Below, piece by piece: positions 2,603 through 47,843 of a stretch of 59,621 nt of DNA. Location of the stretch: sequence record PZ049713.1. One strand, given 5' to 3'. The position numbers and the translations under genes were made by a program. The stretch is from a phage. Within the stretch, counting starts at the first letter, position 1. Every line of letters starts with the position of its first letter. A model generated the notes under the pieces. The model was not told the DNA's origin and searched no databases. It worked only from the letters and a program-made list of their open reading frames with translations.

Positions 2603-2793
2603 TCTTCGTACCTTGATCGGCTGTAGTAGATTCGTCCATTGATGCGATTCCAGACGCCCTCGGGAATCTGGTTCCGGCTTCGCCTGCCTTCTAGGGCTCG
2701 ATCGGTTGTGCCAAGTATCATGGCCATCTGCTGCTCAGTCACCTTGTCGGGGAACCACTCCGGCAGATTCTCTAGTTTCTCTGCGCCCATCCC

Positions 2794-3510: not shown

Positions 3511-3807
3511 GCTCTATCTCCTGCTGCGTGTGGGGTTAGGCGAGCTGAGCCGGCGCCCATCCTTTGATCTTGTCGACGGCTATCGACTTGCGTGTTTGGG
3601 CGTCGTACCACATGAAGAAGCACTCATTTCCCATGAAGACTAATGAGGTTGTGGCTGCGCGCGTCCTGCCGTCTTTAAGGAAAAGCTGAATCGGCTTACC
3701 GGCAGGCGGCGGCTCGGTAACGGGTCGCATGAATGGAATTACAGGCACGAGCAAATCCTCCCCGCCGACTCTCGCCGGCAGACTGTGGGTTTGGGTGGGG
3801 TTAGGGG

Positions 3808-4476: not shown

Positions 4477-7467
4477 TCCACTGCCTCCAATGCCTTAGCC
4501 GGGTAAATCTGCACGCTGTTGCGATGGGCGCTGCTCTCGACTGCGTAGCCCTCTGGTGTCAGTTCCGTGGAGTAGGTGCCGCAGATATGGCCTTCCCACT
4601 CGCTGCCGGTGGACTTCTTCACGAGGTCGCCCATGCGGAACTTGCCTTGCGGGGCGGTCTGCGCGGAGCGGGTGAGTGACGCCGCGATGCGTTCGTGCTG
4701 GGCGACGGTCATATACTCCCCGTCGTCATCATCGGTCATATACGCCTCAACCTCAGAGGCGCGCCCGCAATGCGGCACGCTGGTCATCGGGCTGAACCGC
4801 TCCACCGCCTCCCGCTCATCCTGCGCCGGGCTGGCTCGTCGCCCTCCAGCTCTGCCGCTAGCTCGGGATTGCACACTGAGCAACCATCGCCAACCGTGCG
4901 CTCTCGCATCGTGCAGCGGCATTCCGACTCGGCCTGCTGGGATAGGGCGTCCTGATCCGTCCAGCCAGCGTGATCATGGAAAGGTGCAGGCCGCAGCCAT
5001 CGCCGTAGTGTTCGGCTTGGCAATCGACCACCTGCTGCGACGACCCGCGCATCGCTTCGTTCTCCGCCTTCGCAGCCCCCAGCTCAGCGCCGATTCGCCC
5101 GGCTACCTTCAGTGTGTCGTTCATTGCTCAATCTCCTTGATTGTGGCCAGCGGCAGCCCGCTCATTGCCAGCGGCTCGTCGTAGCAGACGCCCATCATCT
5201 CGGGCCATTTACGCGGCTCGCCCGGGTTTGATGGCGCCCTGGTATATGCCGGTCCCATGCCAGCCGATGCCGGATGACCTCGATACAAGTCCCACGCAAT
5301 GCCATCCTCGCGGCGCTTCGTGGCCTCCGGCATCAGTGTGCAGCCAGGCGCTGGATCTCGTGCCGCGTGGCGTGGACCTGCTCCCAGTCGCGCCGGTCGT
5401 AGAACCCGGCAGCCGCTCAATGGCGTGATCTGATCTGGCCGATCTTGATGCGTGCCAGTAGCTCACAGGCCTCTTGCAGCTCGGCGGCCTGGCGCTCGAG
5501 TTACGTGTGATGGTGTAGGTGCGCATTGGCGCCTCCTCGGCGGCTCCGGTGGGCGGCAGCGGAAACAGGGCGCATGGCCGATCCGCTTCCGTCTGTGCGG
5601 CAGAAGATTGGTGCGTTCACAGCGGCAGCGACCTGCACCGCAAGGCATTCGGCCTCGCCGTGGGGTGATGCAAGCCGATTCACTCGATCGCGCCACTCGT
5701 CCATCGACTCCCTGTGTCAGGGTGGCGGCCCGGCTTGTGGCATTCGGGCTGGAGAGGGCAGGCGCTGCAGCTGCTGCGGGACTTGAAGTTGTAGTGCTGG
5801 CGGCAGAGGGCCTTGGCGGTGTCGGATAGCTGGGTCACGGAGCAGATCCTTCGTAGCGGCTCACGCGGCGCAATGCGCGGCTCGACGTCGATGAACCGGA
5901 GCCTCGGAAGTCGCCATCGGTAGCGCGGCGACTGTCCACCTCAAGGCGCGCCGTGGCGTTAACCTCGGCCGCGACCTCGGCTACAGCCTTCGCTTGTCTC
6001 AATCGAGTAGGCTGCCGGCCAGCACGCCCTCCATCGTCTTGCCGAGGCATGGCGCGCAGATCACTGAGGTTGTTCATGGTGCTCTCCAGTTTGTCGAGCT
6101 TCCGCTCGAACCAGCCGAGCGTTATGGCTGCCTGGCGACCCTCGGGCGGATAGCGTTCGATTGAGTTGCGGCGCATGTCTTGTGCGGGTGACTAGCTCGA
6201 GGTTGTCGATTCCAGATGTTGGCGGGGTTGCGATCCTTGAAGACGAGGAAGTGCCCAGCCGGCACTGGGCCGCTGTGCCTTCCCACAACATCACGTGGAC
6301 CGGGCGCCAGTCAGTGCGCTTGTTGCCGGTGTCCGCCACCTTGCGGTAGAGGATGCCGCCCTTGTCGGTGCGCTCCGCTCCGATGGGGCGCCAGGTGTTC
6401 GATGGTCGGTGACCCAGCTTGAACTGCGTGTCCTTGGCCCGGCCTCCTGCCTGCCATCCTTTGCGGCCAGAGTTCCATGTCTGGTGGCCAGGCTTGAACC
6501 TGCCGCAGCCTGTGATTTCCTTGAACTCATCCGGTCGCGTTAGCTCCGAGTTTCGACACGCGATCGTGAATCGAGCCAGTGCCGCGCCCCATCAAGGCTG
6601 CTATCTCGGTGATGGGGCTTGGTGGCATAACAGTTCTGCCAGTGTTGCTGTCCTCTGCCGGCGTCCAGTGCCGGTATTCCGTGCGCCTCCTGCCGGCCAG
6701 TGGGCTCATTTCTTCCGTCTCCCGTGCGTTGTGGCTGTCCAGCCCGGCGCTGGCTACTTGGTTGCCGTGGTCAGCTATCAGGCTGTCGATCAGGGCGCCC
6801 ATGTAGGCGACTAGGCCAGTGACTGTTTCACCACGGGCCATCGCGCTGTGGGTGTGCTTCTCGCCGTTGGGCAGCACGAACCACGCGCTGGCGTTCCAGC
6901 TCGGAAGGGCGCCGAGGCTCAGTGCCGCGAACTACTGGCCGCGACACTCGGTTGTCGATTGAATAGAGCGTCACGATGCAGCTCATGGCTGGCACACCTC
7001 CAGCAGTGCCGCGTCGCTCAGATCACCAAGCGGCGCAGCGATGTATTGAGCAAGCGCGTAGACGCCCCACGGCTTGCCAGCGATTTCCGCCCGGTACGCC
7101 GCGTGACGGATGGCGTCGAGCACGTCGGGGAATCTCATGGCCACTCCTGCCGCAGCACGTCGTTCTGCTTGGCCTGCGGAGTGCCGCGCTTGCGCAGAGG
7201 GAGGCTGTTCGATACGGCAGAGTTGCGGGCGCCACGCTTGCGGCTGCGCTGGTCCGCCTCCGCGTTTCCGGCGTTGTTGAAGACGGCAGGCTTGATCTCT
7301 ATCGGCTTGCCGATGCTGTCGGGCAGCAGCTGGATCTTTCCGCCAGCGCTCAGGAATGCAGCCGGGCCGCGTCATCTGCGCGCGCGGAGCCTCGCCCTGC
7401 GCGACGGCATGGTTGTCGATGAGCGTGGGTGCGTACCGGGGAGGGGGCGGTGGCGCCGGGTGGATCA

Positions 7468-7603
7468 GATCAGCAGCAAGGGCAGCCGCAGCAACAGCGT
7501 CAAGGCCAGCCACAACGCAGCCAGCAGGCGGCGCCTCCAGCCTATGATGACGATGTGCCATTCGCCAACCCCTACTGCGGCGCCCGCTCGCTGCTGATCT
7601 GAT
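7468..7603 (+). other. 3' fragment of the 58480-58818 gene, truncated at the inversion junction
   Basis: 7468 onward is collinear with 58684 onward (Gln-rich C-terminus ...DQQQGQPQQQRQ...); sequence immediately upstream of 7468 is inverted-copy DNA. Confidence 0.8.
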
Positions 7604-7646
7604 CCACCCCGGGCGCCCAGCGCGCCCTCCTCCCCGGTACACACCC

Positions 7647-7940
7647 ATGCTCATAGACAACCATGCCATAGCGCAGGGCGAGGCTCTGCGCGCGCAAATT
7701 GACGCGGCCACGGCTGCATTCCTGAACGCTGGCGGAAAGATCCAGCTGCTGCCCGACAGCATCGGCAAGCCGATAGAGATCAAGCCTGCCGTCTTCAACA
7801 ACGCCGGAAACGCGGAGGCGGACCAGCGCAGCCGCAAGCGTGGCGCCCGCAACTCTGCCGTATCGAACAGCCTCCCTCTGCGCAAGCGCGGCACTCCGCA
7901 GGCCAAGCAGAACGACGTGCTGCGGCAGGAGTGGCCATGA
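7647..7940 (+). CDS. Hypothetical early protein
   Basis: 97-aa ORF; identical copy at 58863-59156; stop overlaps next start (ATGA). Confidence 0.45.
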   Translation: MLIDNHAIAQGEALRAQIDAATAAFLNAGGKIQLLPDSIGKPIEIKPAVFNNAGNAEADQRSRKRGARNSAVSNSLPLRKRGTPQAKQNDVLRQEWP

Positions 7941-8092
7941 GATTCCCCGACGTGCTCGACGCCATCCGTCACGCGGCGTACCGGGCGGAAATCACTGGCA
8001 AGCCGTGGGGCGTCTACGCGCTTGCTCAATACATCGCTGCGCCGCTTGGTGATCTGAGCGACGCGGCACTGCTGGAGGTGTGCCAGCCATGA
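7937..8092 (+). CDS. Hypothetical small protein (51 aa)
   Basis: Not in ORF track (below 60 aa); ATG 7937 overlaps upstream stop, TGA 8090-8092 overlaps next ATG; reads MRFPDVLDAIRHAAYRAEITGKPWGVYALAQYIAAPLGDLSDAALLEVCQP. Confidence 0.4.
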   Translation: MRFPDVLDAIRHAAYRAEITGKPWGVYALAQYIAAPLGDLSDAALLEVCQP

Positions 8093-8367
8093 GCTGCATC
8101 GTGACGCTCTATTCAATCGACAACCGAGTGTCGCGGCCAGTAGTTCGCGGCACTGAGCCTCGGCGCCCTTCCGACTGGAACGCCAGCGCGTGGTTCGTGC
8201 TGCCCAACGGCGAGAAGCACACCCACAGCGCGATGGCCCGTGGTGAAACAGTCACTGGCCTAGTCGCCTACATGGGCGCCCTGATCGACAGCCTGATAGC
8301 TGACCACGGCAACCAAGTAGCCAGCGCCGGCTGGACGGCCACAACGCACGGGAGACGGAAGAAATGA
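8089..8367 (+). CDS. Hypothetical early protein
   Basis: ORF-track frame 8080-8367; ATG at 8089 overlaps upstream stop. Confidence 0.4.
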   Translation: MSCIVTLYSIDNRVSRPVVRGTEPRRPSDWNASAWFVLPNGEKHTHSAMARGETVTGLVAYMGALIDSLIADHGNQVASAGWTATTHGRRKK

Positions 8368-9011
8368 GCCCACTGGCCGGCAGGAGGCGCACGGAATACC
8401 GGCACTGGACGCCGGCAGAGGACGCAACACTGGCAGAACTGTATGCCACCAAGCCCATCACCGAGATAGCAGCCTTGATGGGGCGCGGCACTGGCTCGAT
8501 TCACAATCGCGTGTCGAAACTCGGACTGACGCGACCGGATGAGTTCAAGGAAATCACAGGCTGCGGCAGGTTCAAGCCTGGCCACCAGACATGGAACTCT
8601 GGCCGCAAAGGATGGCAGGCAGGAGGCCGGGCCAAGGACACGCAGTTCAAGCTGGGTCACCGACCATCGAACACCTGGCGCCCCATCGGAGCGGAGCGCA
8701 CCGACAAGGGCGGCATCCTCTACCGCAAGGTGGCGGACACCGGCAACAAGCGCACTGACTGGCGCCCGGTCCACGTGATGTTGTGGGAAGAGCACAGCGG
8801 CCCAGTGCCGGCTGGGCACTTCCTCGTCTTCAAGGATCGCAACCCCGCCAACATCTCAATCGACAACCTCGAGCTAGTCACCCGCGCAGAGAACATGCGC
8901 CGCAACTCAATCGAACGCTATCCGCCCGAGTATCGCCAGGCAGCCATAACGCTCGGCTGGTTCAAGCGGAAGCTCAACAAACTGGAGCAGCACCATGAAC
9001 AACCTCAGTGA
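8364..9011 (+). CDS. HNH endonuclease (HNH_3-like) with N-terminal Myb/SANT-like HTH
   Basis: 215 aa; C-terminal ...HFLVFKDRNPANISIDNLELVTRAEN... resembles the HNH_3 core. Confidence 0.6.
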   Translation: MSPLAGRRRTEYRHWTPAEDATLAELYATKPITEIAALMGRGTGSIHNRVSKLGLTRPDEFKEITGCGRFKPGHQTWNSGRKGWQAGGRAKDTQFKLGHRPSNTWRPIGAERTDKGGILYRKVADTGNKRTDWRPVHVMLWEEHSGPVPAGHFLVFKDRNPANISIDNLELVTRAENMRRNSIERYPPEYRQAAITLGWFKRKLNKLEQHHEQPQ

Positions 9012-9234
9012 TCTGCGCGCCATCCTCGGCAAGACGATGGAGGGCGTGCTGGCCGGCACCTACTCGATTGAACAAGCGAAGGCTGTAGCCCAGGTCGCGG
9101 CCGAAGTTAACGCCACGGCGCGCCTTGAGGTGGACATGGCCCGCGCTACCGATGGCGACTTCCGAGGCTCCGGTTTCATCGACGTCGAGCCGCGCATTGC
9201 GCCGCGTGAGCCGCTACGGAGGATTGCTCCGTGA
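8995..9234 (+). CDS. Hypothetical early protein
   Basis: 79-aa ORF in operon orientation. Confidence 0.35.
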   Translation: MNNLSDLRAILGKTMEGVLAGTYSIEQAKAVAQVAAEVNATARLEVDMARATDGDFRGSGFIDVEPRIAPREPLRRIAP

Positions 9235-9452
9235 CCGAGCTATCCGACACCGCCAAGGCCATCTGCGCCCAGCACTACAACTTCAAGTCCCGCAGCAGCT
9301 GCAACGCCTGCCCTCTCCAGCCCGAATGCCACAAGCCGGCCGCCACCCTGACACAGGAGTCGATGGACGAGTGGCGCGATCGAGTGAATCGGCTTGCATT
9401 ACCCCACGGCGAGGCCGAATGCCTTGCGGTGCAGGAGTCGCTGCCGCTGTGA
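9231..9452 (+). CDS. Hypothetical Cys-rich small protein
   Basis: 73 aa; GTG start overlapping upstream stop; CNACPLQPEC motif. Confidence 0.35.
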   Translation: MTELSDTAKAICAQHYNFKSRSSCNACPLQPECHKPAATLTQESMDEWRDRVNRLALPHGEAECLAVQESLPL

Positions 9453-9543
9453 ACGCACCAATCTTCTGCCGCACAGACGGAAAGCGGATCGGCCAATGCG
9501 CCTGTTTCCGCTGCCGCCCACCGGAGCCGCCCAAGGAGGCGCC

Positions 9544-9948
9544 ATGCGCACCTACACCATCACCGTAACCGAGCGCCAGGCCGCCGAGCTGCAAGAGGCC
9601 TGTGAGCTACTGGCACGCATCAAGATCGGCCAGATCGATCACGCCATTGAGCGGCTGCCGGGCTTCTACGACCGGCGCGACTGGGAGCAGGTCCACGCCA
9701 CGCGGCACGAGATCCAGCGCCTGGCTAACACACTGATGCCGGAGGCCACGAAGCGCCGCGAGGATGGCATTGCGTGGGACTTGTATCAGGTCATCCGGCA
9801 TCGGCTGGCATGGGACCGGGCATATGACCAGGGCGCCATCAAACCCGGCGAGCCGCGTAAATGGCCCGAGATGATGGGCGTCTGCTACGACGAGCCGCTG
9901 GCAATGAGCGGGCTGCCGCTGGCCACAATCAAGGAGATTGAGCAATGA
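9544..9948 (+). CDS. Hypothetical early protein
   Basis: ATG at 9544 preceded by AAGGAGG; in frame with ORF-track 9394-9948. Confidence 0.45.
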   Translation: MRTYTITVTERQAAELQEACELLARIKIGQIDHAIERLPGFYDRRDWEQVHATRHEIQRLANTLMPEATKRREDGIAWDLYQVIRHRLAWDRAYDQGAIKPGEPRKWPEMMGVCYDEPLAMSGLPLATIKEIEQ

Positions 9949-10598
9949 ACGACACACTGAAGGTAGCCGGGCGAATCGGCGCTGAGCTGGGGGCTGCGAA
10001 GGCGGAGAACGAAGCGATGCGCGGGTTGTTGCAGCAGGTGGTCGATTGCCAAGCCGAACACTACGGCGATGGCTGCGGCCTGCACCTTTCCATGATCACG
10101 CTGGCTGGACGGATTAAGGACGCCCTATCCCAGCAGGCCGAGTCGGAATGCCGCTGCACGATGCGAGAGCGCACGGTTGGCGATGGTTGCTCAGTGTGCA
10201 ATCCCGAGCTAGCGGCAGAGCTGGAGGGCGACGAGCCAGCCCCGGCGCAGGATGAGCGGGAGGCGGTGGAGCGGTTCAGCCCGATGACCAGCGTGCCGCA
10301 TTGCGGGCGCGCCTCTGAGGTTGAGGCGTATATGACCGATGATGACGACGGGGAGTATATGACCGTCGCCCAGCACGAACGCATCGCGGCGTCACTCACC
10401 CGCTCCGCGCAGACCGCCCCGCAAGGCAAGTTCCGCATGGGCGACCTCGTGAAGAAGTCCACCGGCAGCGAGTGGGAAGGCCATATCTGCGGCACCTACT
10501 CCACGGAACTGACACCAGAGGGCTACGCAGTCGAGAGCAGCGCCCATCGCAACAGCGTGCAGATTTACCCGGCTAAGGCATTGGAGGCAGTGGAATGA
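9945..10598 (+). CDS. Hypothetical protein, Cys-rich
   Basis: 217 aa; ATGA overlap with upstream gene. Confidence 0.45.
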   Translation: MNDTLKVAGRIGAELGAAKAENEAMRGLLQQVVDCQAEHYGDGCGLHLSMITLAGRIKDALSQQAESECRCTMRERTVGDGCSVCNPELAAELEGDEPAPAQDEREAVERFSPMTSVPHCGRASEVEAYMTDDDDGEYMTVAQHERIAASLTRSAQTAPQGKFRMGDLVKKSTGSEWEGHICGTYSTELTPEGYAVESSAHRNSVQIYPAKALEAVE

Positions 10599-11263
10599 GC
10601 AAGGTATTGGTTGATCGGGAGCTGTTGGACAGCGCGGCGACATGGCTTGAGGTGCACGCGCCAGGTGGTGGCTGCGTTGAAGGTTCGGTGGCGGAAGATT
10701 TGCGCGCCATTCTTGAACAGCCCGCAGAGGCGGAAGGGGTCGAGGTGGTGGCTTGGCAGCAACGATACATTTGCCCAGACGAAGGCCCGAGCTGTTGGCA
10801 ATCCGCTGATGAGCGGACCTTGGAAATACTTCGGCGTCGCGATGACTATGAGCTTCGCCAGCTGGTCCCGCTAACCGCCCTATCAGCCGTGACCGCCGAG
10901 CGGGATAGGCTGCTGGAGGAAGTGACAGAGCTGGACGCTCTGCGCGATAAGCTGTCGGGCCTACTGAGCAAGACAGCAGTGGCACTCCGAGGGCCTGAGC
11001 CGGAGCTTACTCGGTACGGATATGCCGACATACCGCTACGTGTAAAGACGGTCATTGACGAGCGCGAACAACTGATCGATGGCATGAACAGAATCATGCG
11101 GGCAACACGGCTTGGCGATGACGCATTCGCAATTGCGTGCGAGGTTGTCGGGGAGCTGAATGGCGCCGCCATGGCTGCGAAGGAGGCCGAGCCTGAACAC
11201 GTCTGCTCGGGCTGTGGAGCGAAAGGCTGGACCGGCAACTGCTTAGAGTGCATTCCGTACTAA
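10595..11263 (+). CDS. Hypothetical protein with C-terminal CxxC...CxxC
   Basis: 222 aa; ATGA overlap with upstream gene. Confidence 0.45.
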   Translation: MSKVLVDRELLDSAATWLEVHAPGGGCVEGSVAEDLRAILEQPAEAEGVEVVAWQQRYICPDEGPSCWQSADERTLEILRRRDDYELRQLVPLTALSAVTAERDRLLEEVTELDALRDKLSGLLSKTAVALRGPEPELTRYGYADIPLRVKTVIDEREQLIDGMNRIMRATRLGDDAFAIACEVVGELNGAAMAAKEAEPEHVCSGCGAKGWTGNCLECIPY

Positions 11264-11538
11264 CCCCCCCTAACCCCACCCAAACCCACAGTCTGCCGGC
11301 GAGAGTCGGCGGGGAGGATTTGCTCGTGCCTGTAATTCCATTCATGCGACCCGTTACCGAGCCGCCGCCTGCCGGTAAGCCGATTCAGCTTTTCCTTAAA
11401 GACGGCAGGACGCGCGCAGCCACAACCTCATTAGTCTTCATGGGAAATGAGTGCTTCTTCATGTGGTACGACGCCCAAACACGCAAGTCGATAGCCGTCG
11501 ACAAGATCAAAGGATGGGCGCCGGCTCAGCTCGCCTAA
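11248..11538 (+). CDS. Hypothetical protein (start uncertain)
   Basis: ORF-track frame; GTG at 11248 or ATG at 11344, neither with a clear SD. Confidence 0.3.
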   Translation: MHSVLTPPNPTQTHSLPARVGGEDLLVPVIPFMRPVTEPPPAGKPIQLFLKDGRTRAATTSLVFMGNECFFMWYDAQTRKSIAVDKIKGWAPAQLA

Positions 11539-11562
11539 CCCCACACGCAGCAGGAGATAGAC

Positions 11563-12279
11563 ATGCCCGAACTCATCAAGCGGTTCGCCAAGAACACGGC
11601 GGGCCGTGACTTTGCCGTGGGCGACATTCACGGATGCTTTACGAAGCTGCAGCAGGCGCTCGACGGGATCGGCTTTGACCCGGCAGTCGATCGTCTGTTC
11701 TCGGTTGGCGATCTGGTTGATCGCGGCCCTGAATGTGACATGGCGCTGGAGTGGCTGGCAAAGCCCTGGTTCCACCCGGTGCGCGGCAACCACGACGACT
11801 ACGTGTGCCGGTACGACAGCTGCGAGCTGGGCAACTGGCTCATCAACGGCGGCGGCTGGTTCCTGTCGCTCAACAGCGACGAGCAGGCAGAGTACGCCGT
11901 CCAGTTCCGTGAGCTGCCGATCGCCATTGAACTGGAGACGGACGCAGGGCTAGTTGGCATCGTGCACGCCGACTGCCCATTTCCGACATGGGCTCAGACG
12001 GTCGCCGAGCTGACCGCGCCGGAATCACCGAAGCGCCTGAAACTGGTCAAGAACAGCTGTATGTGGTCGCGCACTCGAATCGAGATGGTCGACACAAGCG
12101 GGATACCGGACCTGCTCGCGCTTGTGGTCGGCCATACCCCGCTGCGCACGCCAGCAATCCTCGGCAACGTCGTTCACATCGACACTGTCGGCTGGCGGGA
12201 TGAAGGCTATTTCACGCTGACGGACTTGAACACGCTGCCTGAAGTTATCGAAGCAGCCAGCGTAACGGTGAGGGGGTGA
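11563..12279 (+). CDS. Ser/Thr protein phosphatase (calcineurin-like metallophosphatase)
   Basis: 238 aa; motifs GDIHG, GDLVDRG, GNHD in canonical order. Confidence 0.8.
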   Translation: MPELIKRFAKNTAGRDFAVGDIHGCFTKLQQALDGIGFDPAVDRLFSVGDLVDRGPECDMALEWLAKPWFHPVRGNHDDYVCRYDSCELGNWLINGGGWFLSLNSDEQAEYAVQFRELPIAIELETDAGLVGIVHADCPFPTWAQTVAELTAPESPKRLKLVKNSCMWSRTRIEMVDTSGIPDLLALVVGHTPLRTPAILGNVVHIDTVGWRDEGYFTLTDLNTLPEVIEAASVTVRG

Positions 12280-12282
12280 GGG

Positions 12283-12630
12283 ATGGGCGCAGAGAAACTA
12301 GAGAATCTGCCGGAGTGGTTCCCCGACAAGGTGACTGAGCAGCAGATGGCCATGATACTTGGCACAACCGATCGAGCCCTAGAAGGCAGGCGAAGCCGGA
12401 ACCAGATTCCCGAGGGCGTCTGGAATCGCATCAATGGACGAATCTACTACAGCCGATCAAGGTACGAAGAATGGCAAGAAAGCCTATGGCACTGCCCACC
12501 GGAGTTGAGCTACGCAACGATACGATCCGCATCCGATTTAGCTGGAACGGAAAGCGATGCTCAGAAACCCTCGCCCTCCCCCCGACGCAAGCGGGCATTG
12601 CCGCTGCATCCCGTCTACGCGATCAAGTAG
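12283..12630 (+). CDS. xis: Excisionase-like DNA-binding protein (3' end uncertain, overlaps int)
   Basis: N-terminal ~65 aa (...VTEQQMAMILGTTDRALEGRRSRNQIPEGVWNRINGRIYYSRSRYEEW) resembles excisionase-family HTH proteins; immediately upstream of int. Confidence 0.5.
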   Translation: MGAEKLENLPEWFPDKVTEQQMAMILGTTDRALEGRRSRNQIPEGVWNRINGRIYYSRSRYEEWQESLWHCPPELSYATIRSASDLAGTESDAQKPSPSPRRKRALPLHPVYAIK

Positions 12631-13652
12631 TCCAGCAGATCAAGCACGGCATCTTCGACGAGCGTAAGTATGCCGAGCTCTTCCCGGGCTCGCCGAACGC
12701 CATATCGAGCGTTTCGCGCGGGTTCGGCCAGTACGCCCAGGTCTGGCTCGACAGCCGATCGATCTCGGAAGGCACGCGCGACAACTACAAGTCAGTGCTC
12801 AATGTCTGGTGGATGCCGTACCTGGCCACAACTCTCCTTCCCAACCTGACGACCGCCTTCATGCGCGAGCTAGTCGTTCAAATCCCATGGACCTCGGACG
12901 GCGTGAAGGCGAACGCCATGAACAAGCTGAGCACCATTCTCGAGTCGGCGGTTTCGGACAGGCTCCTGACGGAGAACCCAATTCAGGCGCTGGACATACC
13001 GACGCGGACGGAAGCGAAGGTCGACCCGTTCACGCAGGATGAGGCGGACAGGATCATTGCCAGGCTCTACGAAACGGAGCACTGGCCCAGCCAGATATAC
13101 GCTGCGTTCTTCGAGTTCGCTTTCTATACCGGCATGCGGTTAGGAGAGATCGCTGCCCTTCGCTGGGAAGAGGTCGATTTGAAGAGGCGTACGGTCCACG
13201 TCTGCAGGTCCGTAGCAAAGAAGAAGGTCGTCGAGCGGACGAAGACCAAGAAGGAAAGGTTTGTGCTGCTGAATGATCGGGCAGTGCATGCCCTTCTGTT
13301 CGCCAAGCAGTACGCCGAGCGGCGCGCGGCCGGCAGCGGGCGGCTGACAGATTTTCCGTTCTGCTTCCCGCCAAGCAAAAACTCTCAGTTCGTGCAGCAG
13401 ACAAGCGACCTGCATCACCAGTGGCGACCGACGCTAAAGGCGCTGGGTATTCGCTACCGGCCCCCGTACAATGCGCGCCACACCTACGCAACCATGTGCC
13501 TGATGGCCGGAATGACACCGGCATTCATCGCCAAGCAGCTCGGCCATTCGATACAGATTCTGCTGTCTCGGTATGCCCGCTGGATCGACGGCGAAGGCGA
13601 TTGGGCTGAGATGCGCAAATTGCAGTTTGCCCCAAAAGTGCCCCAAGCGTAG
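12471..13652 (+). CDS. int: Tyrosine-type phage integrase
   Basis: 393 aa; C-terminal catalytic region with ...ARHTYATMCLMAG...LGHSIQILLSRYARW... (R, H-x-x-R, Y). Confidence 0.9.
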   Translation: MARKPMALPTGVELRNDTIRIRFSWNGKRCSETLALPPTQAGIAAASRLRDQVVQQIKHGIFDERKYAELFPGSPNAISSVSRGFGQYAQVWLDSRSISEGTRDNYKSVLNVWWMPYLATTLLPNLTTAFMRELVVQIPWTSDGVKANAMNKLSTILESAVSDRLLTENPIQALDIPTRTEAKVDPFTQDEADRIIARLYETEHWPSQIYAAFFEFAFYTGMRLGEIAALRWEEVDLKRRTVHVCRSVAKKKVVERTKTKKERFVLLNDRAVHALLFAKQYAERRAAGSGRLTDFPFCFPPSKNSQFVQQTSDLHHQWRPTLKALGIRYRPPYNARHTYATMCLMAGMTPAFIAKQLGHSIQILLSRYARWIDGEGDWAEMRKLQFAPKVPQA

Positions 13653-13851
13653 CACTACACCTCTGAAACCCGCGAGATAAAGCCTCTTGATTTCTACCGC
13701 CAACATCACCATGCAGTTCTAATGGGGGTTTTGGCGGGGTATGCTCCCCGTATTTACTGGGCTGCATGCCCTCACGGGCCCTCGAAAAACCGTACCCTGC
13801 CCCAAAAATTGCCCCGAGATTTGCCCCCTATCTCAGCCCGTCCGGGCAATC

Positions 13852-14367
13852 TCAATTCCCCCTCACCGCGTCATAAGCTTTCTCACACGCCGACCCAGCT
13901 ATTCCTCGGTCATCGGCGACAGCAGCATAGAGTTGAGCAGCCGTTCCAATCCGGCCGAACAAGTCGGCTCGCACTCTGGCGGCGTCCTCGGCTGCCTGGC
14001 TGAGCTGGGCAGTGATGGCATTGCCGGCGTCACGACTGCGCTGCTCAGATGCTGCGAGGCGCAACTTGAGCCGCTCAAGAGCACTACCAGCGCGCTCAGC
14101 ATCGCTACGCGCCGCAGCCAGTTGTTCCTGTGCCTCTGCATCTGCTTTCTCCGTCGCGGCCTGGCGCCGCTGGTTTTCCTGAATGACGAACAGCGCAGCG
14201 CGGCGGTCGCGCTCGCTGACTTCGGTGCGGTAGGAGGCCAGATCGGCCTGCGCCTGCGCGGCGTCAGACTGCGCCGATAGCACCCGGATCTGCTGCCCGC
14301 CGGCCACGGCAGCCAGAGCCAGCACCCACCAGGCCCAGCTGGGCACGAACTTCAGCCAGGCGGTCAT
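13852..14367 (-). CDS. Rz-like i-spanin
   Basis: 171 aa; N-terminal TM (WAWWVLALAAVAGG) followed by Ala/Gln/Arg-rich coiled coil; embedded +1-frame ORF; adjacent to endolysin. Confidence 0.6.
   Translation of the reverse strand: MTAWLKFVPSWAWWVLALAAVAGGQQIRVLSAQSDAAQAQADLASYRTEVSERDRRAALFVIQENQRRQAATEKADAEAQEQLAAARSDAERAGSALERLKLRLAASEQRSRDAGNAITAQLSQAAEDAARVRADLFGRIGTAAQLYAAVADDRGIAGSACEKAYDAVRGN
13899..14102 (-). CDS. Rz1-like o-spanin embedded in Rz
   Basis: Alternative-frame ORF: MLSALVVLLSGSSC signal/lipobox-like start then Pro-rich stretch ending ...PPECEP; the lipobox is not canonical. Confidence 0.4.
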   Translation of the reverse strand: MLSALVVLLSGSSCASQHLSSAVVTPAMPSLPSSARQPRTPPECEPTCSAGLERLLNSMLLSPMTEE

Positions 14368-14843
14368 CGCATCACCTCACGCACGGCCGCGGCGAATCGG
14401 GCTGGCCAGCGATCCGGATGCGGTTTTCCAGGGCGCCATGTACGCAGGTACAGATCCCAGCCGCCCGCAGCGTCATGCTCGCCTGGCAGAGGCTTCGGGT
14501 CAGTCCATAGCAAAAGCCGGCCGAAGGCGAACGCCAGCACGTCGTCACGCTCGAGCGCAGCCCACACGGCGGCAGGCTCAGGCGCAACACCTCGAGCAGC
14601 ACACACTCGACGGGCGTGGTCGCGGCTCGAAGGGTGGCTCAGCACACCACGCACACCACCGCCCTGCTCGAACTGAAGCAGCCCGCGGGCCGGCCCGGTC
14701 GGCCACTGGCGGCGCCGCTGTTCCGGATCTTCCTGCTGAGTAATAGCAAGCAGCATGATCTCTGCCTCTCGGCTCGACATTCGCGCAGGCAGCAGCGCGA
14801 GAGCGGGCGCTATGGCGCGCTCCCGTATTTCAGAGAGGGTCAT
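14364..14843 (-). CDS. Endolysin candidate (lytic transglycosylase / SLT-like)
   Basis: ATG at 14843 (MTLSEIRERAIAPALALL...); SLT-like ...LLAITQQEDPEQ... region; ATGA overlap with Rz. Confidence 0.5.
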   Translation of the reverse strand: MTLSEIRERAIAPALALLPARMSSREAEIMLLAITQQEDPEQRRRQWPTGPARGLLQFEQGGGVRGVLSHPSSRDHARRVCAARGVAPEPAAVWAALERDDVLAFAFGRLLLWTDPKPLPGEHDAAGGWDLYLRTWRPGKPHPDRWPARFAAAVREVMR

Positions 14844-14985
14844 GGGTAATCCTTCAGACGAAAAAAAACCCGACTGGCGGGACGTAAACGAATGTCTCAA
14901 TCGGGTGGTGATAGTCGCCCCATTCGGGCATAATCCACGACTTCCTGAGCAGCGACTCTTTAGCTGTTATTACAAGGATGGGTAT

Positions 14986-16146
14986 ATGAGAAGCGCGTCA
15001 GGCATCTTTCTATTCGTGCTGTTCCCAGGATATTTCTTTTATCACATCGCATATAGCTTGGGCATGGTTCCTTATATTGGAATCTTCACAATCACTCTAG
15101 CCATTGCGTGTGGCTACTTCCTAATTAAGCTATTTATTGGACTTCTGAGAAATCCTTACCCGATAGTGTCATTTGCAGATGCATGCTTTGTTCTGTTAAT
15201 AATCACGCTGTCTGCAATTACCATCGTGAACCACACGCTTAATGACGGTGCGTATATCGATACGGACGGACTTGTGTTTAGCGCATCAATCATCGTATCG
15301 ATGACTGGGCTTTATTTTTTAGGGAGAAATATAGTTCTGGAGCAGCAAAAGAAATCGACGCTTGCAGCGCTGGCTTTACTAGCCGGATACCTCGCATGCG
15401 CGATAATTTTCTATCAAGAAAACGGCGGCTATATGCTGCTCCCCACTCCGAGCGAATCGGCGCCGGAGCCCTCAAATTATCAGGGCCTTGCCCGCTCGGT
15501 TATGTACTCGCTGATTTTCACTTTGCCCTTTATCAAGTCTGGGCTCATGAGATTCGTCTACGCTGCAGCCAGCCTAGCCTGCTTGTATTTGATCGGTTCA
15601 AGAACGGACTTCGCACTTTGCGCTATGGTGTTCCTGGTTTCGATGCTGATAAGGTCAAGCATTAGAGGCGCAGTTATGGCATATGGATTGATGATACTCG
15701 CCTTACCAGCCGCGCTTTATTTTCTCTACCAGTCCGACAGATTCGCGATCAGCTCCACCGACCCGTCACTTGTTGCGCGTGGAATATTCACCGAATCATC
15801 AATAGACGGAATTTCGGGTTCACCTATCCTTGGTGATTACCTCGGGCAGGTTAGAGACTTCGGCGACATTGGAAGTTACGCGCACAACGCTCTTTCCATG
15901 TACCAGCAATTCGGACTAATACCGTTCATTGCTTACATTGCATTCATTATTTTTAGCTTATTGATCGCAATCAAGTCTCTCGCTATAAATCGTCGATCTC
16001 CATACACAGAGCTTCTGCTGCATCTTTCCGTCGTTGCGCTGGCCGGGGTCTTGGTGGCGAAGTCAATACTCTGGACGACCCCAGTACTGGCCTGGGGTCT
16101 TGCGGTGAGCATAAGGAGAAATCGCTACGCTTGTATTAGGCCGTAA
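14986..16146 (+). CDS. Polytopic membrane protein, Wzy-like (O-antigen polymerase/ligase family)
   Basis: 386 aa from ATG 14986 with AAGGA SD; many hydrophobic helices; markedly AT-richer than flanks; between lysis genes and tailspike. Confidence 0.5.
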   Translation: MRSASGIFLFVLFPGYFFYHIAYSLGMVPYIGIFTITLAIACGYFLIKLFIGLLRNPYPIVSFADACFVLLIITLSAITIVNHTLNDGAYIDTDGLVFSASIIVSMTGLYFLGRNIVLEQQKKSTLAALALLAGYLACAIIFYQENGGYMLLPTPSESAPEPSNYQGLARSVMYSLIFTLPFIKSGLMRFVYAAASLACLYLIGSRTDFALCAMVFLVSMLIRSSIRGAVMAYGLMILALPAALYFLYQSDRFAISSTDPSLVARGIFTESSIDGISGSPILGDYLGQVRDFGDIGSYAHNALSMYQQFGLIPFIAYIAFIIFSLLIAIKSLAINRRSPYTELLLHLSVVALAGVLVAKSILWTTPVLAWGLAVSIRRNRYACIRP

Positions 16147-18182
16147 CCCTTCCATGATCCAGGCGAGCCCGCTACCACGCAAACCCAGCCGCTGTACTGG
16201 CCTGCGGACGGATATCTATTAACTACTCTGTCGCCGGAGTTCCATGTGCCGGTTGTAGGTATGGCTGTGCCGAACCATTCCTTACCGAAGTTGCCCGCTT
16301 GGAGGGTTTCGTAAAGGTACAGGACACCCCCTACAAATTGATTGTCAGCATAATATCGAAGCGGCTCGGCAGGGTTCTTAAAGCGCATTGCAGTTACACG
16401 GAAGCCACTCACAGTATTGCGCGCCACTGACATTGTTGACTGAGTGCCCGATTCGATGAATATGCCGTGCTCCATGAGCGTGGCGTTACCGCGAATGGTA
16501 TTCCCAGTGATTTCTTTCTCTGACCCTGCGGTGATATGAATACCCAAGCCAGCACCGATGCCGCCTGCACGCCCAACATCCTCCAGCTTGTTATTGCTTA
16601 TCTTTGCACCTACACCGTTTGCGTCGAAAATGCCTTGATACTGGGTTTGGCGAATACTGTTCCCGGTCGCAACTAGGTTCGAATACTGATCAAAATAAAG
16701 GCCGGAACGACCCACTACGGCGACAGAGTTGCCTGTAACGTTGGCGTCGGCCGCATACCGAACCGCAATACCATCTTGACCAACGTTAGCAATCGTATTG
16801 CCCGTAATGGACAAGACCTTGCAGCGCATAGGAGTAGCCGTTGGCCCGGTGTTGATAACCTGAATACCGTCACCACCAGACACACCGCTGATCGTGTTAC
16901 CCGTGATTGAAACCGAACCGCTGTTGCCGCCGCCAGCGTCATAATTTTGAACTTTCAGACCTGACGCAACGGTGTTGCGGATAGTGTTACCAGTAATCGA
17001 AAGCCCAAAAATGCCCGTGTCGCAGTACAAGCCATGCTCGGTAACGATGTCGTGTATCACGTTGCCAGTGACGGTCACATTCTCTGAAAGCTGCCCGATG
17101 ATTCCGCCAGACGCTGTTCCCGATATTCTATTACCAAACACATTTATGTTTTTGCCAACCAGGGTGAAGCCTGTTGTGTTTCTGTAGTTGGGGTCGTTCA
17201 GTACCGCGGCACCCGGACCATGAACAACGTTGTACGCGAAGGTCGCACCGTCGACAGGGAGGTTTGTCATCACCGGCGAATATCGGAAATCACGGAAGAC
17301 GTTACCGATAATTTGCAGATTGATCGCTTCGGAGCCGCTGACCCCGATAGCTTGCGATGCTGGGCTATTTACATAGGTCGCCTCGTCGGCACCAATCAAC
17401 TCCAAACCGGTCACGGTTACATCAGACAGGCCATCAGCATCGAACAGTACCGTTTGCACCGCCGTTTGCCGGATCACTGCATGCCGCCCTGACAGATAAT
17501 GGCCAGACCTTAGCTGGAGCTTCCCATTGACCAGGTAATGATCACTCGCGTCACCGAAATCGACGTATAAGCCTGCATTCAGCGCAGCTTGGATTGCCAC
17601 CGTATCATCAGTAACCCCGTCCGCTACCGCGCCGTAAGAACGAGGGCGCACCGTCTTGTCGCTTTCTAGTATTTCAGCGACGGTCCGCGTACCCAGTCGT
17701 ACAAGACTAGCGCCTTCCGCTGCCGCCAACTCCTGCCGCAGCACGTCATCCCCAAGCAGCACGAGGCTGGCAGAGTCAGTCGCCCAAGTGCCAGTGAGCT
17801 CCAGAGGAAGCGTAGCGTCAGGGCCGGGCCGGTAGAGGCCTGCGGTCGTACCGGTAGTGGCCGCATTGACTGCAACGTACTCGTTCCGCTCCTCCAGTAC
17901 GACATTGGCCGCATAGTCGCCCTTGCTCACATAGCCGGAAGACACGAGAAACGCCTGGAACCGGCTCTCCTTATCGGCCTGACTCAGTGTGAACGCGGTT
18001 TCGCGGCCTTCCTGCGCATTGTTGAAGCTGTTTTCCATGCCGGACCACGACTCGCGCAGCTTGCCCAGTCGGTCGGCATAGAACGGATCTGCGCCGTTGA
18101 CCAGCTTGTCGAGGTTCTCGGCGTTGTCGTACAGGTCGCGCGGATCGGTGGACGGGACGTTGTTGCCGGTATTGAATGTCAT
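16125..18182 (-). CDS. Tailspike protein with right-handed beta-helix (depolymerase-like)
   Basis: 685 aa; repeated ...TGNTI/TGNV... strands (VTVTGNVI, SITGNTIRN, SITGNTISG, ITGNTIAN, VTGNSVAV, ATGNSIRQ, ITGNTIRG); last gene of the tail operon. Confidence 0.7.
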   Translation of the reverse strand: MTFNTGNNVPSTDPRDLYDNAENLDKLVNGADPFYADRLGKLRESWSGMENSFNNAQEGRETAFTLSQADKESRFQAFLVSSGYVSKGDYAANVVLEERNEYVAVNAATTGTTAGLYRPGPDATLPLELTGTWATDSASLVLLGDDVLRQELAAAEGASLVRLGTRTVAEILESDKTVRPRSYGAVADGVTDDTVAIQAALNAGLYVDFGDASDHYLVNGKLQLRSGHYLSGRHAVIRQTAVQTVLFDADGLSDVTVTGLELIGADEATYVNSPASQAIGVSGSEAINLQIIGNVFRDFRYSPVMTNLPVDGATFAYNVVHGPGAAVLNDPNYRNTTGFTLVGKNINVFGNRISGTASGGIIGQLSENVTVTGNVIHDIVTEHGLYCDTGIFGLSITGNTIRNTVASGLKVQNYDAGGGNSGSVSITGNTISGVSGGDGIQVINTGPTATPMRCKVLSITGNTIANVGQDGIAVRYAADANVTGNSVAVVGRSGLYFDQYSNLVATGNSIRQTQYQGIFDANGVGAKISNNKLEDVGRAGGIGAGLGIHITAGSEKEITGNTIRGNATLMEHGIFIESGTQSTMSVARNTVSGFRVTAMRFKNPAEPLRYYADNQFVGGVLYLYETLQAGNFGKEWFGTAIPTTGTWNSGDRVVNRYPSAGQYSGWVCVVAGSPGSWKGYGLIQA

Positions 18183-18255
18183 GCGTTTACTCCAGGCGTG
18201 AAAATCCGCACGGCGTCCTTGCGGGCCGTGTCCGGTATGTGGTGTTGGCTAGTGG

Positions 18256-20958
18256 TTAGGCGGGTGGCGTTGCGTCGTCGTAGGCGTAGACTTCTGGCGC
18301 GTAGTTGACTGCCTCTACTGACGCCCCATCTGTGCCGTTCGGGCTGATTGACGTGATCAGTGCCGGATAGCTCCAGCGGTTGACCGGCCCGAACAAGAGG
18401 TGCGGCGGTTCGATGCTCCACGAGGTGTCGGGCTCAAAGTCCAAGCCGGTGATCGACAGCCGATACTCATCGATGCGCGTCGCGGCGTATGGCCCAGAGA
18501 GCGTGCCATCAGGACGGCGAATACCGACCACATGCGCGCCACCGGCTGACCAGTCGAACGGCTCGGATGACTCGATGATGCCGCTGTCGTAGCTCAGCAT
18601 CAGCGCGCTCTGGCCGTAGCCCGGCACGTCGTCGGCCACATGGCAGAACGACATAAACCCCGAATTCAGCGCATCCAGCTCGGTCGCCCAGCGATACGCC
18701 CAGCGCCTATGTTTGTGCGCCATCCGCTGCCGCATCCCGAGGCGCCAAGCGCGCGTCCTGCTAGTGATGCCCTCTGCCGTAAGCTTCTCGACCTTGCGCC
18801 CGATATCGCCCGGCAGGCGGCACTCAACGGTCTCCACCGCCCAGGTGTTTTCGTCGACGTATTCCACATCCACGCCGTCGAAGTCGTCCGGGCCTACGGC
18901 GGAGAAGTCGCGCTCCAGCTCTTCTGTCATGTTCTGCGGCGTGTACAAGTCGGTTTTCGGCGCGAAGGTCTGCTGTGGCGTGTCGCGCGGCTCATCACGA
19001 GCAGCAGACAAGCGCCCGCGCTCGATAGTCAGGTCGGCAAAGCCGGCTTTTAGCGCATGGCCGATGATCTGCTTGACCGTGGACGCGGACTCGTAGGCCA
19101 TGTCAAAGCGGTCGCCGCGCTGCGCCCATAGGGCTCCGAGGCGATCCAGTTCGGCGAAATCCAGGTCGTCATCGGTATAGCCGATGGATCGTGCAACGTA
19201 GGCCACGAACGGCACGATATCGCGCGTCGGCGTCTCGACATCCCATGCGCCGTCACCTGTTCGAACAGGCAGCACGCGCGTGACCTCAGCGGAAATCAGC
19301 TGCTCTGACTGTGCGGCCAAGCGGTTGCCGCCCTTGACGCGCACGGCCATCACCGTGACGCCCTCGTATGCGGTCGGCGCCTGCAACTTGGCGCGCAGCC
19401 CGTACCACTCCACGCCATCAATGATCTGCGTGCTGTCGGATTTCGCGCCGATGCGCCTCAGCCGCACTTCGGGCCGCATCATGCTCGGCAGCGTCAGCGA
19501 TTCGGTGTAGCCGAGCTGGTCGACCTGCGCGCCGCTGTAGCTCTTGGTGATCGACGTCCAGGCGCCCGCCAGCGCGGCGTCGCGATACTGCATCTCCACG
19601 GTCACGGTAATCGAGAATTTGCGGCCCTTCTTATCGACGCCGCACAGGCCGCCGGGGAACATCACGTCCCACTCGATATGGCTGGCCACCTCGTTCGGCG
19701 GGCAGGCCATGAACGGCCCGGTCCAGTCGCCCTCCTGCGTGGATGCGTCGAGGCTGATCGAGGCGTCGGCACTGTTGAAGTCATCGAATCCCGGCCATGC
19801 GACCGGATCAGGCGCGCCGGTATCGGTCAGGCGCTCAACCGATATGGCCGATATGCCGGCCGCAACGATGCGATAGCGTAGGCCCGCATAGCCCACGCTC
19901 AGGCTCGCAGGGCCAGCCGGCAGCGCCGTAACGGGCGAGCCATTTAGGTAGTTCAGTGTGAGCTGGTCAGGCGCGCCTGGCGTGTAGCTGTGCACGACGA
20001 ACGAGCCGGCATAGTCGCCAGCCACCTCAATGACCATGCCCGCAAACGGCGCCATCCAAGCGAAGCTTCCTTCGATGATGTCTCGATCCGCCCCGCCGTC
20101 GATGACGGTAAAAGGTCGCGGAGCCTCGATGCGGACGATCATGCCCGGCGCCCATCCGGCTGGGAACGAGCCGGCACCGGACGGGATAGTGATGGTGTCG
20201 CCGCTGAAGATGTAGCTGGTTGCCGTAGGTTCTGGGTCGACGGCGTAGGTTGCCGTCAACTCCAGGCCTGCGGAGCCGGTCGAGGTAGCGCCCACTTCGT
20301 CAGCCGAGTGCCACCACTCTGCCGCAGCCTCGCCGGCCAGCGATTGGCCGGGCTGGTAGATCGAATATTCCGCATCGCTGCCGAGGGAAATCAGCGGAGT
20401 ATCGCCGACCAGGATGCGGCTGGCCGGGATTTCGAATTTGCCCTTGCCGATGCACAGCAACATTTCCACCCACTGATCGCGCGGGGCCGAGAAGAAGCGA
20501 TGCGGCGGCAACAGGTAATCGGGGTACACACGCCGCTTGCCTGCAACCTCTCGAATTGGGTCGTTGATTCGGACCTTGTTGCCCTTGGCCGAGGCCTCGT
20601 TGAGCGCATCGCCACGCCCCACTCCGCCGCCGCCTTTCGTCTGCGGCTTGGGCATCATCGAGACGACGAGCACCGCGGCCGCCACTGCGACGGCCGCATA
20701 GACGAGCATCGCGGTCGCGCTGATCGGCTCTTTCGGCTCAGGCGTGATATCCACCACATCGTCCGGCGCGATGACGAAGCTATCCCACTCCCCGGACGGC
20801 ACCAGGGCGCCATTCACCTCGAAGCTGATCGGGTGAACGTCGCGCTCGCTGTATGACGGGACGTTCGCGCGCAGCCAGGCGCCGATGGTCATCGCCGAGC
20901 CGATGTGATGCGTCTCCAGCGGCTCACCTTGGAGCTTGGACGGATAAATCCGAATCAT
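18256..20958 (-). CDS. Tail tip / host-specificity protein (lambda I/J-like)
   Basis: 900 aa; position after the NlpC/P60 tail protein and before the tailspike; N-terminal hydrophobic segment as in gpI-like proteins. Confidence 0.6.
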   Translation of the reverse strand: MIRIYPSKLQGEPLETHHIGSAMTIGAWLRANVPSYSERDVHPISFEVNGALVPSGEWDSFVIAPDDVVDITPEPKEPISATAMLVYAAVAVAAAVLVVSMMPKPQTKGGGGVGRGDALNEASAKGNKVRINDPIREVAGKRRVYPDYLLPPHRFFSAPRDQWVEMLLCIGKGKFEIPASRILVGDTPLISLGSDAEYSIYQPGQSLAGEAAAEWWHSADEVGATSTGSAGLELTATYAVDPEPTATSYIFSGDTITIPSGAGSFPAGWAPGMIVRIEAPRPFTVIDGGADRDIIEGSFAWMAPFAGMVIEVAGDYAGSFVVHSYTPGAPDQLTLNYLNGSPVTALPAGPASLSVGYAGLRYRIVAAGISAISVERLTDTGAPDPVAWPGFDDFNSADASISLDASTQEGDWTGPFMACPPNEVASHIEWDVMFPGGLCGVDKKGRKFSITVTVEMQYRDAALAGAWTSITKSYSGAQVDQLGYTESLTLPSMMRPEVRLRRIGAKSDSTQIIDGVEWYGLRAKLQAPTAYEGVTVMAVRVKGGNRLAAQSEQLISAEVTRVLPVRTGDGAWDVETPTRDIVPFVAYVARSIGYTDDDLDFAELDRLGALWAQRGDRFDMAYESASTVKQIIGHALKAGFADLTIERGRLSAARDEPRDTPQQTFAPKTDLYTPQNMTEELERDFSAVGPDDFDGVDVEYVDENTWAVETVECRLPGDIGRKVEKLTAEGITSRTRAWRLGMRQRMAHKHRRWAYRWATELDALNSGFMSFCHVADDVPGYGQSALMLSYDSGIIESSEPFDWSAGGAHVVGIRRPDGTLSGPYAATRIDEYRLSITGLDFEPDTSWSIEPPHLLFGPVNRWSYPALITSISPNGTDGASVEAVNYAPEVYAYDDATPPA

Positions 20959-40723: not shown

Positions 40724-40806
40724 TTGTCGCTCCCATATAGCGCTAATGGTTAGGGCCGGCAGTGTGTTCCCGCACTCTGCTGGCCCGTTCAATTCTACCA
40801 AATTAA

Positions 40807-47842: not shown

Positions 47843-47843
47843 C

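Follow-up and report, generated by a model that had tools for sequence, protein, structure and literature searches.

A Wzy-type polymerase gene convergent with a beta-helix tailspike gene is a likely lysogenic-conversion determinant of a temperate phage

The 59,621-nucleotide phage sequence record PZ049713.1 (the whole stretch that was analysed, referred to below as the window) contains a gene of low guanine-plus-cytosine (GC) content, encoding a multi-pass membrane protein, whose 3′ end meets that of a tailspike gene on the opposite strand. A sequence-only reading had compared this pair with the serotype-conversion genes of Pseudomonas phage D3, in which a Wzy-type polymerase stands near the tailspike. 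The comparison was upheld by homology, conserved residues, fold, the wzx context of homologues, the position of the gene in the slot known from D3 and the temperate character of the genome. It is likely that the wzy-like gene was acquired horizontally together with the beta-helix of the spike and that it is a lysogenic-conversion moron for a predicted surface-polysaccharide polymerase, most likely acting on O-antigen. The module comprises the following features:

14986 to 16146, plus strand: wzy-like gene, predicted 386-amino-acid inner-membrane glycan polymerase of the Wzy_C/WaaL-like superfamily, distant homologue of D3 Wzy-beta
14844 to 14985, plus strand: upstream region of the wzy-like gene, 142 nucleotides between the divergent endolysin start and the gene
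16125 to 18182, minus strand: tailspike, 685 amino acids, matching Pfam Beta_helix and NosD and the PHROG tail spike/tail fibre families
14977 to 17500, no strand assigned: mobile cassette (wzy-like gene and beta-helix part of the spike), delimited by nucleotide identity to prophage L002

Homology, conserved residues and fold of the Wzy-like protein

The start of the wzy-like gene was placed at the ATG at 14986, which has an AAGGA Shine-Dalgarno sequence 7 nucleotides 5′ of it (14974-14978). The mechanically called open reading frame (ORF) extends from 14755 to 16146 on the plus strand, and the chosen ATG is clear of the endolysin gene, which starts at 14843 and is divergent. Nine strongly hydrophobic segments were found in the protein by Kyte-Doolittle analysis, and its AlphaFold2 (AF2) model contained about 12-15 helices. 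The GC content of the gene was 0.475 (0.53 at third codon positions), compared to 0.605 ± 0.027 for segments of the same size elsewhere in the genome (z = −4.8), and was the genome-wide minimum for equal-sized segments. The earlier description of an AT-rich, multi-pass membrane protein convergent with the tailspike was thus accurate in both respects, the 3′ ends of the two genes overlapping by 22 nucleotides (16125-16146).

When an alignment of 12 family members was compared to D3 Wzy-beta with hhalign, the match had a probability of 99.7% (E = 1.8e-26) over 361 columns, spanning residues 10-377 of 386. A pairwise BLASTP comparison of the wzy-like protein with D3 Wzy-beta gave 23% identity over 324 amino acids (E = 2e-9). 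In D3 Wzy-beta, R254, R270, R272 and H300 of the HX10G motif are essential, and alanine substitution of K295 impaired function (Taylor et al. 2016, PMC4815439). R270 of the D3 protein aligned with R265 of the wzy-like protein and H300/G310 with H300/G310, both being invariant in all 12 family members. The conserved positions of the wzy-like protein were R206, R265, D284, H300 and G310 (the last two forming HX10G), and K295 of D3 Wzy-beta corresponded to R290, a conservative change.

A profile search of PDB sequences with the wzy-like family returned nothing even at E ≤ 10, so a comparison of folds was needed. Foldseek placed WaaL, RodA and FtsW at the top of the matches to the model, indicating a WaaL-like/SEDS-like fold of the GT-C type, and the best solved-structure match was WaaL of Cupriavidus metallidurans (PDB 7TPG/7TPJ; 11% identity). 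An unrelated transporter family was ruled out, as every transporter match in Foldseek had E > 0.7 and a TM-score below 0.2. Profile homology to D3 Wzy-beta and the WaaL/SEDS-like fold together supported the proposed membership in the O-antigen polymerase/ligase type.

The number of relatives depended on the search employed. A word-indexed protein search recovered only 8-12 relatives; an exhaustive hidden Markov model (HMM) search raised this to 2,745 cluster representatives at E ≤ 1e-3, with 573 remaining under the stricter limit of E ≤ 1e-30. Almost all were full-length proteins of about 400 amino acids. The exact protein was not present in a collection of 15 billion sequences. No close relative was found in a scan of species-representative genomes, where the best full-length matches had 27-30% identity, and a scan of IMG/VR returned only two loci. 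Relatives in NCBI, from Pseudomonas urethralis and Pseudomonas sp. 382, are labelled 'hypothetical protein'.

Polymerase assignment from chromosomal context

WaaL and Wzy proteins are indistinguishable by fold alone, and the genomic context of the homologues was used instead. The position just after wzx, inside a repeat-unit cluster, is the classical place of wzy. Two homologues, P0005 (38% identity) and P0008 (25% identity), were located directly downstream of Polysacc_synt (wzx) genes, in clusters that also held WbpA/B/D/E-like, HisH/HisF, Fnl-like (FnlABC-type), sugar-nucleotide and glycosyltransferase genes. A Polysacc_synt_3 flippase (Wzx) gene was present upstream of three relatives from Cupriavidus and Ralstonia (L013, L014, L017), and further relatives were found among sugar-nucleotide genes. 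Because the homologues lie beside wzx and the protein is homologous to Wzy-beta, a repeat-unit polymerase is the best assignment; the wzy-like protein is accordingly best described as a predicted Wzy-type polymerase of a Wzx/Wzy-dependent surface polysaccharide.

The same data bear on the proposal that the protein is a WaaL-like ligase or an O-oligosaccharyltransferase of the PilO/TfpO/PglL type, transferring a glycan onto lipid A-core or pilin, which we consider quite improbable. WaaL is the best solved-structure match, the Pfam family bears the name O-antigen ligase, and the HX10G histidine is common to WaaL and Wzy-beta. However, the PDB hit lists contained no Wzy structure at all, which makes WaaL merely the nearest solved fold. 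Moreover, the full-length homology is to a proven polymerase, the length of 386 amino acids equals that of Wzy-beta exactly, and the chromosomal homologues stand beside wzx in repeat-unit clusters, not in core-oligosaccharide or pilin loci.

The tailspike, the mobile cassette and its slot

The tailspike matched Pfam Beta_helix with E = 1.1e-26 (93.7 bits, cut-off 25.9) and NosD with E = 4e-12. Eight repeats of the form [IVLF][TFIS]GN[TSVRA][IVF] were present, half of them reading exactly ITGNTI, so that the beta-helix tailspike with TGNTI repeats reported from the letters alone was recovered. A right-handed beta-helix was also obtained in the AF2 model of residues 171-685 (predicted local distance difference test score, pLDDT, of 92.9). 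The tail fibre of phage PS-1 shares only the first ~175-224 amino acids of the tailspike (74% identity over the first 224) and the last 45. The GC content was 0.528 for tailspike codons 176-640, 0.61 for the tailspike N-terminus and 0.643 for the neighbouring J-like gene; the low values of the wzy-like gene thus extend into the middle of the tailspike gene, and the last two values are typical of the genome. Comparison with PS-1 suggests that amino acids ~1-175 form an N-terminal virion anchor and that the central right-handed beta-helix is a foreign receptor-binding/depolymerase domain. Judging from the model, the tailspike would bind polysaccharide and probably cleave it.

The cassette at 14977-17500 had 96-100% nucleotide identity to prophage L002, with a single dip to 86-88% at about 16277-16576. 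The flanks were far more divergent: identity was 84-92% for the lysis genes, 56-61% for the N-terminal segment of the spike and 55-70% for J. High identity of the cassette inside divergent flanks indicates that the wzy-like gene and the spike beta-helix move as one cassette. More distant Wzy relatives (34-38% identity) were encoded convergently with tail spikes or fibres in siphovirus-, myovirus- and podovirus-like phages. In other phages, wzy relatives adjoined the gene for the receptor-binding protein as follows:

L004/L005: myovirus-like; wzy relative between the lysis genes and a gene for a 731-amino-acid beta-helix spike
L009: siphovirus-like; wzy relative with a gene for a 717-amino-acid spike
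L006: Mu-like; wzy relative adjoining tail-fibre genes
L043/L045-47: Pseudomonas urethralis-type prophage; wzy relatives adjoining an 816-amino-acid tail ORF
L044: wzy relative adjoining the gene for a protein with a T7-tail-fibre N-terminal domain

These arrangements suggest that wzy and the receptor-binding domain travel together, linked by position and function and not by strict co-phylogeny. The spike domains of L004 and L009 were 78% identical on unrelated anchors, and the L004 spike showed no significant similarity to the present tailspike. The stricter notion that a related spike domain accompanies every Wzy relative was rejected, since the L004 spike is not detectably related to the present one and the Wzy proteins of L004 and L009 are only 45% identical.

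The slot itself was informative. The nearest sequenced phage relatives were PS-1, vB_PstS-pAN and ZRG1, with Pseudomonas/Stutzerimonas hosts. In PS-1, the spanin, endolysin and tail-fibre genes adjoin one another with nothing in the slot, which identifies the wzy-like gene as an insertion (moron) in this lineage; two lytic phages with related spikes also had no gene in that slot. In a Stutzerimonas nitrititolerans prophage (L048), the same slot was occupied by a gene for a 660-amino-acid Acyl_transf_3+SGNH protein (7111-9093), convergent with a spike whose beta-helix domain was 51% identical to the present one. By its domain composition, the L048 protein has the architecture of an O-antigen acetylase, of the same type as D3 Oac. 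The site between tailspike and lysis genes thus appears to be interchangeable among surface-modification genes. In D3, the order is J-like orf26, tailspike orf27, iap, oac, wzy-beta, HNH, endolysin, attP, int and xis, and the order found here (xis, int, attP, lysis, wzy, tailspike, J) is its exact mirror image. The phage is temperate and lambdoid, having an integrase, an excisionase-like gene and a CI-like repressor; an O-like replication initiator, a DnaB helicase and an exonuclease were also found elsewhere in the genome.

Proposed mechanism of conversion

In a lysogen, transcription of the wzy-like gene would start in its 142-nucleotide upstream region and run counter to the late operon, and the promoter would have to sit within 14844-14985. 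The product would enter the inner membrane, take the host's flipped repeat units linked to undecaprenyl diphosphate (Und-PP) and join them through a linkage differing from that made by the host Wzy, using a catalytic loop with R265, D284 and H300 (HX10G). Wzy-beta and its HX10G histidine suggest, by analogy, that the reaction would be inverting and beta-forming. The altered polymer would escape binding or cutting by the neighbouring tailspike, and the lysogen would stop adsorbing this phage and others of the same receptor specificity. Such superinfection exclusion would operate at the level of the receptor, and released virions would not be wasted on lysogens.

A bolder version, which we regard as possible and on balance doubtful, is that conversion by a single gene, free of an inhibitor, has been welded to the receptor-binding domain of the tailspike, forming one cassette that moves among siphovirus-, myovirus- and podovirus-like temperate phages. 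In this phage, the enzyme would out-compete or co-polymerise with the host Wzy, and hitherto undescribed small peptides encoded upstream of wzy in some relatives (see below) may be inhibitor analogues. If so, a new host-recognition domain would arrive together with the enzyme that hides the lysogen from that same domain.

Contrary evidence and alternative explanations

A number of observations, set out in this section, weigh against a D3-like conversion gene. Among the residues essential in D3 Wzy-beta, R272 aligned with I267 and is not conserved, and R254 fell beside R252 with a shift of one residue. In Pfam, Wzy_C (PF04932) matched residues 193-283 of the wzy-like protein with only 19 bits (E = 0.0012), below the cut-off of 31.7, and no match was found in PHROGs or NCBIfam. 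The HMM check for a Wzy_C domain proposed in the sequence-only reading thus gave only a sub-threshold match for the protein itself, whereas 10 of the 12 aligned family members matched Wzy_C at E ≤ 0.01 (best 6e-10). D3 Wzy-beta likewise scored under the cut-off (21.9 bits). Since a proven polymerase is also sub-threshold, yet most members match, the Wzy_C model under-detects this branch. The branch is systematically under-annotated, its members being mostly 'hypothetical' and missed by the thresholds of Pfam, NCBIfam and PHROG.

The accessory genes of D3 were also missing. No small hydrophobic ORF that could encode an Iap-like peptide was found in 13600-18400, except for an implausible one inside the spike gene; no low-GC small ORF with a transmembrane (TM) segment was found anywhere in the window, nor was any gene of the O-acetylase/Acyl_transf_3 type. 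Other ORFs of at least 100 amino acids with at least three hydrophobic segments were limited to 55197-56234 and 57233-57865 (three segments each), and neither gave an indication of an acetylase. In D3, Iap is needed for complete conversion. Expression of wzy-beta alone in PAO1 leads to both alpha- and beta-linked chains (Taylor et al., PMC4815439). With no Iap-like inhibitor, conversion by the present phage may thus be partial, giving mixed chains as with wzy-beta alone.

Small ORFs were observed directly upstream of wzy, on the same strand, in L004 (about 7990-8136), L006 (3814-4041) and L009 (1540-1689). They encode 47-49 amino acids, with a hydrophilic N-terminus, one C-terminal TM helix and a common FW...G pattern, and are possible functional analogues of D3 Iap. 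No such ORF was found in the present phage, in L002 or in L043/L045. Its absence from L043/L045 led us to reject a small upstream TM peptide as a universal partner of wzy.

The lack of an encoded inhibitor of the resident polymerase is also what would be expected if the phage provided the only working polymerase of its host, creating long-chain O-antigen for the benefit of host fitness and not for receptor masking. Prophage Wzy proteins are reported to be able to take over polymerisation (PMC9241936). Nevertheless, we hold this explanation to be highly improbable, as the beta-helix tailspike implies that the host displays a polymer before lysogeny, and the other occupants of the slot are modifying enzymes such as the O-acetylase.

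The structural matches of the tailspike raised the question of the polymer involved. The best PDB matches of its model were the alginate C5-epimerases AlgE4/AlgE6 and the Vibrio polysaccharide lyase RbmB, and on this basis the target could be exopolysaccharide or capsule and not O-antigen. The wzy-like protein would then be a Wzy for capsule or exopolysaccharide that changes the linkage of K-units, and the tailspike a depolymerase of the same polymer. A phage-encoded Wzy that alters capsule linkage has been documented in Acinetobacter baumannii K127 (WzyPh1; PMC9241936), and the Pfam content of the Wzx/Wzy clusters of the homologues fits O-antigen and capsule alike. In contrast, the closest characterised relative, D3 Wzy-beta, works on O-antigen, and the clusters of the homologues resemble the O-specific antigen (OSA) clusters of P. 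aeruginosa, with WbpA/B/D/E-like, HisH/F and Fnl-like genes. The tailspike model also matched Acinetobacter depolymerases and the spikes of phi29 (gp12), CBA120, Det7, Sf6 and HK620; for these spikes and for the lyases and epimerases, Foldseek E values ranged from 1e-9 to 1e-6. The last three spikes, which are specific for O-antigen, matched equally well in structure. A capsule or exopolysaccharide as the substrate is therefore considered unlikely, and O-antigen remains the preferred one.

The last group of contrary observations concerned expression. The promoter/terminator scan detected no sigma-70-like promoter on the plus strand upstream of the wzy-like gene. In the closest relatives, L002 and L003 (98% Wzy identity), an insertion sequence (IS) was located at the equivalent of about 14968-14972, ~15 nucleotides before the wzy ATG. 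In both (8879-9982 in L002, 30-1067 in L003), the IS carries a DDE_3 (IS630-like) transposase gene and separates wzy from its presumed promoter, so the gene could perhaps be dispensable there. Together with the atypical GC content, these observations would fit a silent passenger, recently transferred, unexpressed or non-functional, and hitch-hiking with the receptor-binding domain of the tailspike. We attach very little probability to this explanation, since the ORF is intact with family-invariant catalytic residues, and unrelated phage types, whose proteins are 34-45% identical, preserve the layout of the gene beside a receptor-binding protein. The ratio of non-synonymous to synonymous polymorphism (pN/pS) relative to the L002 copy was about 0.28 and, being based on only 15 differences, lends weak support to a functional gene. 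A GC stem (CCCG-CCAGT-CGGG) followed by T8 was additionally noted on the minus strand at ~14858-14880, between the wzy-like and endolysin genes; it reads as a weak intrinsic terminator and lies under the stem threshold of the scan tool.

Relation to known conversion systems

The serotype-converting unit of D3 reportedly consists of iap, oac and wzy-beta (Newton et al. 2001; Taylor et al. 2016, PMC4815439). The present phage resembles D3 in being a temperate siphophage with the same gene order and with a conversion gene that runs counter to the late genes, and its polymerase resembles Wzy-beta in its 386 amino acids, Wzy_C type and full-length homology, with Arg270 and His300 (HX10G) kept. It differs in that the polymerase is only about 21-23% identical, R272 of D3 is not conserved, and neither an Iap inhibitor peptide nor an O-acetylase was found. 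The tailspike domains are also unrelated, that of D3 being an LKA1 gp49-type pectate-lyase (PF22442) and the present one a generic Beta_helix/NosD domain. The D3 paradigm has also been noted for phi297 and pMG1 (PMC4815439).

In A. baumannii K127, WzyPh1 is reported to be a lone prophage Wzy that supersedes the chromosomal polymerase and alters how the capsule units are joined, and closely related genes are reported from unrelated phages (PMC9241936). As in the present case, there is a single phage-borne Wzy with no known inhibitor. WzyPh1 differs in acting on capsule and in that no linkage to a tailspike gene is reported in the part of the account that was consulted. The only match of the wzy-like protein in a tblastn search of the phage collection was VG_p25 of the Variovorax temperate phage VarioGold (22% identity, E = 4e-4), a 10-TM protein of the O-antigen ligase family that resembles D3 Wzy-beta and has been proposed as a moron (PMC9658991). 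Both genes adjoin the lysis cassette and run opposite to the late genes; VG_p25, however, lies between the lysis cassette and the integrase, is not beside a tailspike, and three small proteins, membrane-bound or secreted, are encoded after it. WaaL of C. metallidurans differs as a ligase, not a polymerase, in another genomic context.

In P22 (gtrABC), Sf6 (oac) and epsilon15 (polymerase and inhibitors), the seroconversion genes lie near the tailspike and att/int, and an O-antigen-specific tailspike is paired with a gene whose product alters the same O-antigen during lysogeny. These enterobacterial podoviruses differ from the present phage in employing a glucosyltransferase, an acetyltransferase or unrelated polymerases. 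The pairing is thus not new in principle, having been known since D3, epsilon15, P22 and Sf6, and the present case is a divergent example of it. What is new is modest: this Wzy branch is large and poorly annotated, wzy is clearly co-mobile with the receptor-binding domain of the spike, and an inhibitor appears to be lacking.

If conversion takes place as proposed, lysogens would carry an altered surface polysaccharide, with a changed serotype, changed phage susceptibility and possibly changed recognition by predators or hosts. The link to D3 Wzy-beta helps to annotate conversion genes of prophages in Pseudomonas/Stutzerimonas and elsewhere. A near-identical cassette in two otherwise divergent phages points to the co-transfer of receptor recognition and receptor modification, which bears on the prediction of host range and the design of phage-therapy cocktails.

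Sequence record architecture and neighbouring features

Self-alignment of the record revealed a near-palindrome at 1-15083, which matches its reverse complement at 98.2% identity (146 gap columns, centre at about 7542). It also showed that 7468-8388 equals 58684-59604 exactly, forming a 921-nucleotide direct repeat. The left arm (1-7541) contained many indels and frameshifts, and its integrase and endolysin copies were broken. This is most simply explained by a fold-back artefact of long-read sequencing, joined to a 51,216-bp circular genome (7468-58683) that was assembled with a terminal overlap. A second prophage, to which the additional integrase and lysis cassette at the left end would have belonged, was rejected, because the self-alignment identifies this end as an inverted fold-back copy. 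Positions 1-98 on the minus strand repeat the 5′ end of the wzy-like gene in noisy form and do not represent a second gene.

The module is surrounded by the following features:

12283 to 12630, plus strand: excisionase-like gene (xis)
12471 to 13652, plus strand: tyrosine integrase
about 13653 to 13851: presumed intact attP region, the 200-nucleotide gap between the integrase and spanin genes
13852 to 14367, minus strand: Rz-like spanin (DUF2514), flanking context
14364 to 14843, minus strand: endolysin-like gene (phrog_3108), 159 amino acids from the ATG at 14843, divergent from the wzy-like gene and outside the module
18256 to 20958, minus strand: gpJ-like tail tip protein (phrog_469, E = 1.6e-268), encoded in the late operon upstream of the tailspike gene

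The rest of the siphovirus tail operon follows beyond the gpJ-like gene. As the junction of integrase, attP and lysis genes is intact, the phage is circular and not integrated in this sequence. The related phages and a homologue of the spike suggest that the host is probably a Stutzerimonas or another non-aeruginosa Pseudomonas. The search for tRNA genes was negative. Two paralogous genes of the endonuclease VII/HNH type (36471-37205 and 39581-40816, both on the minus strand) coincide with patches of lower GC content (0.555-0.57) and are probably mobile, homing-endonuclease-like insertions; PS-1 and D3 instead have an HNH gene beside the tail-fibre/wzy region. At 47440-47527, inside or beside the O-like replication initiator gene (47033-47974, minus strand), three to four tandem 22-nucleotide repeats with the core GAGCTGCACCCCGTT were observed, which are probably origin iterons.

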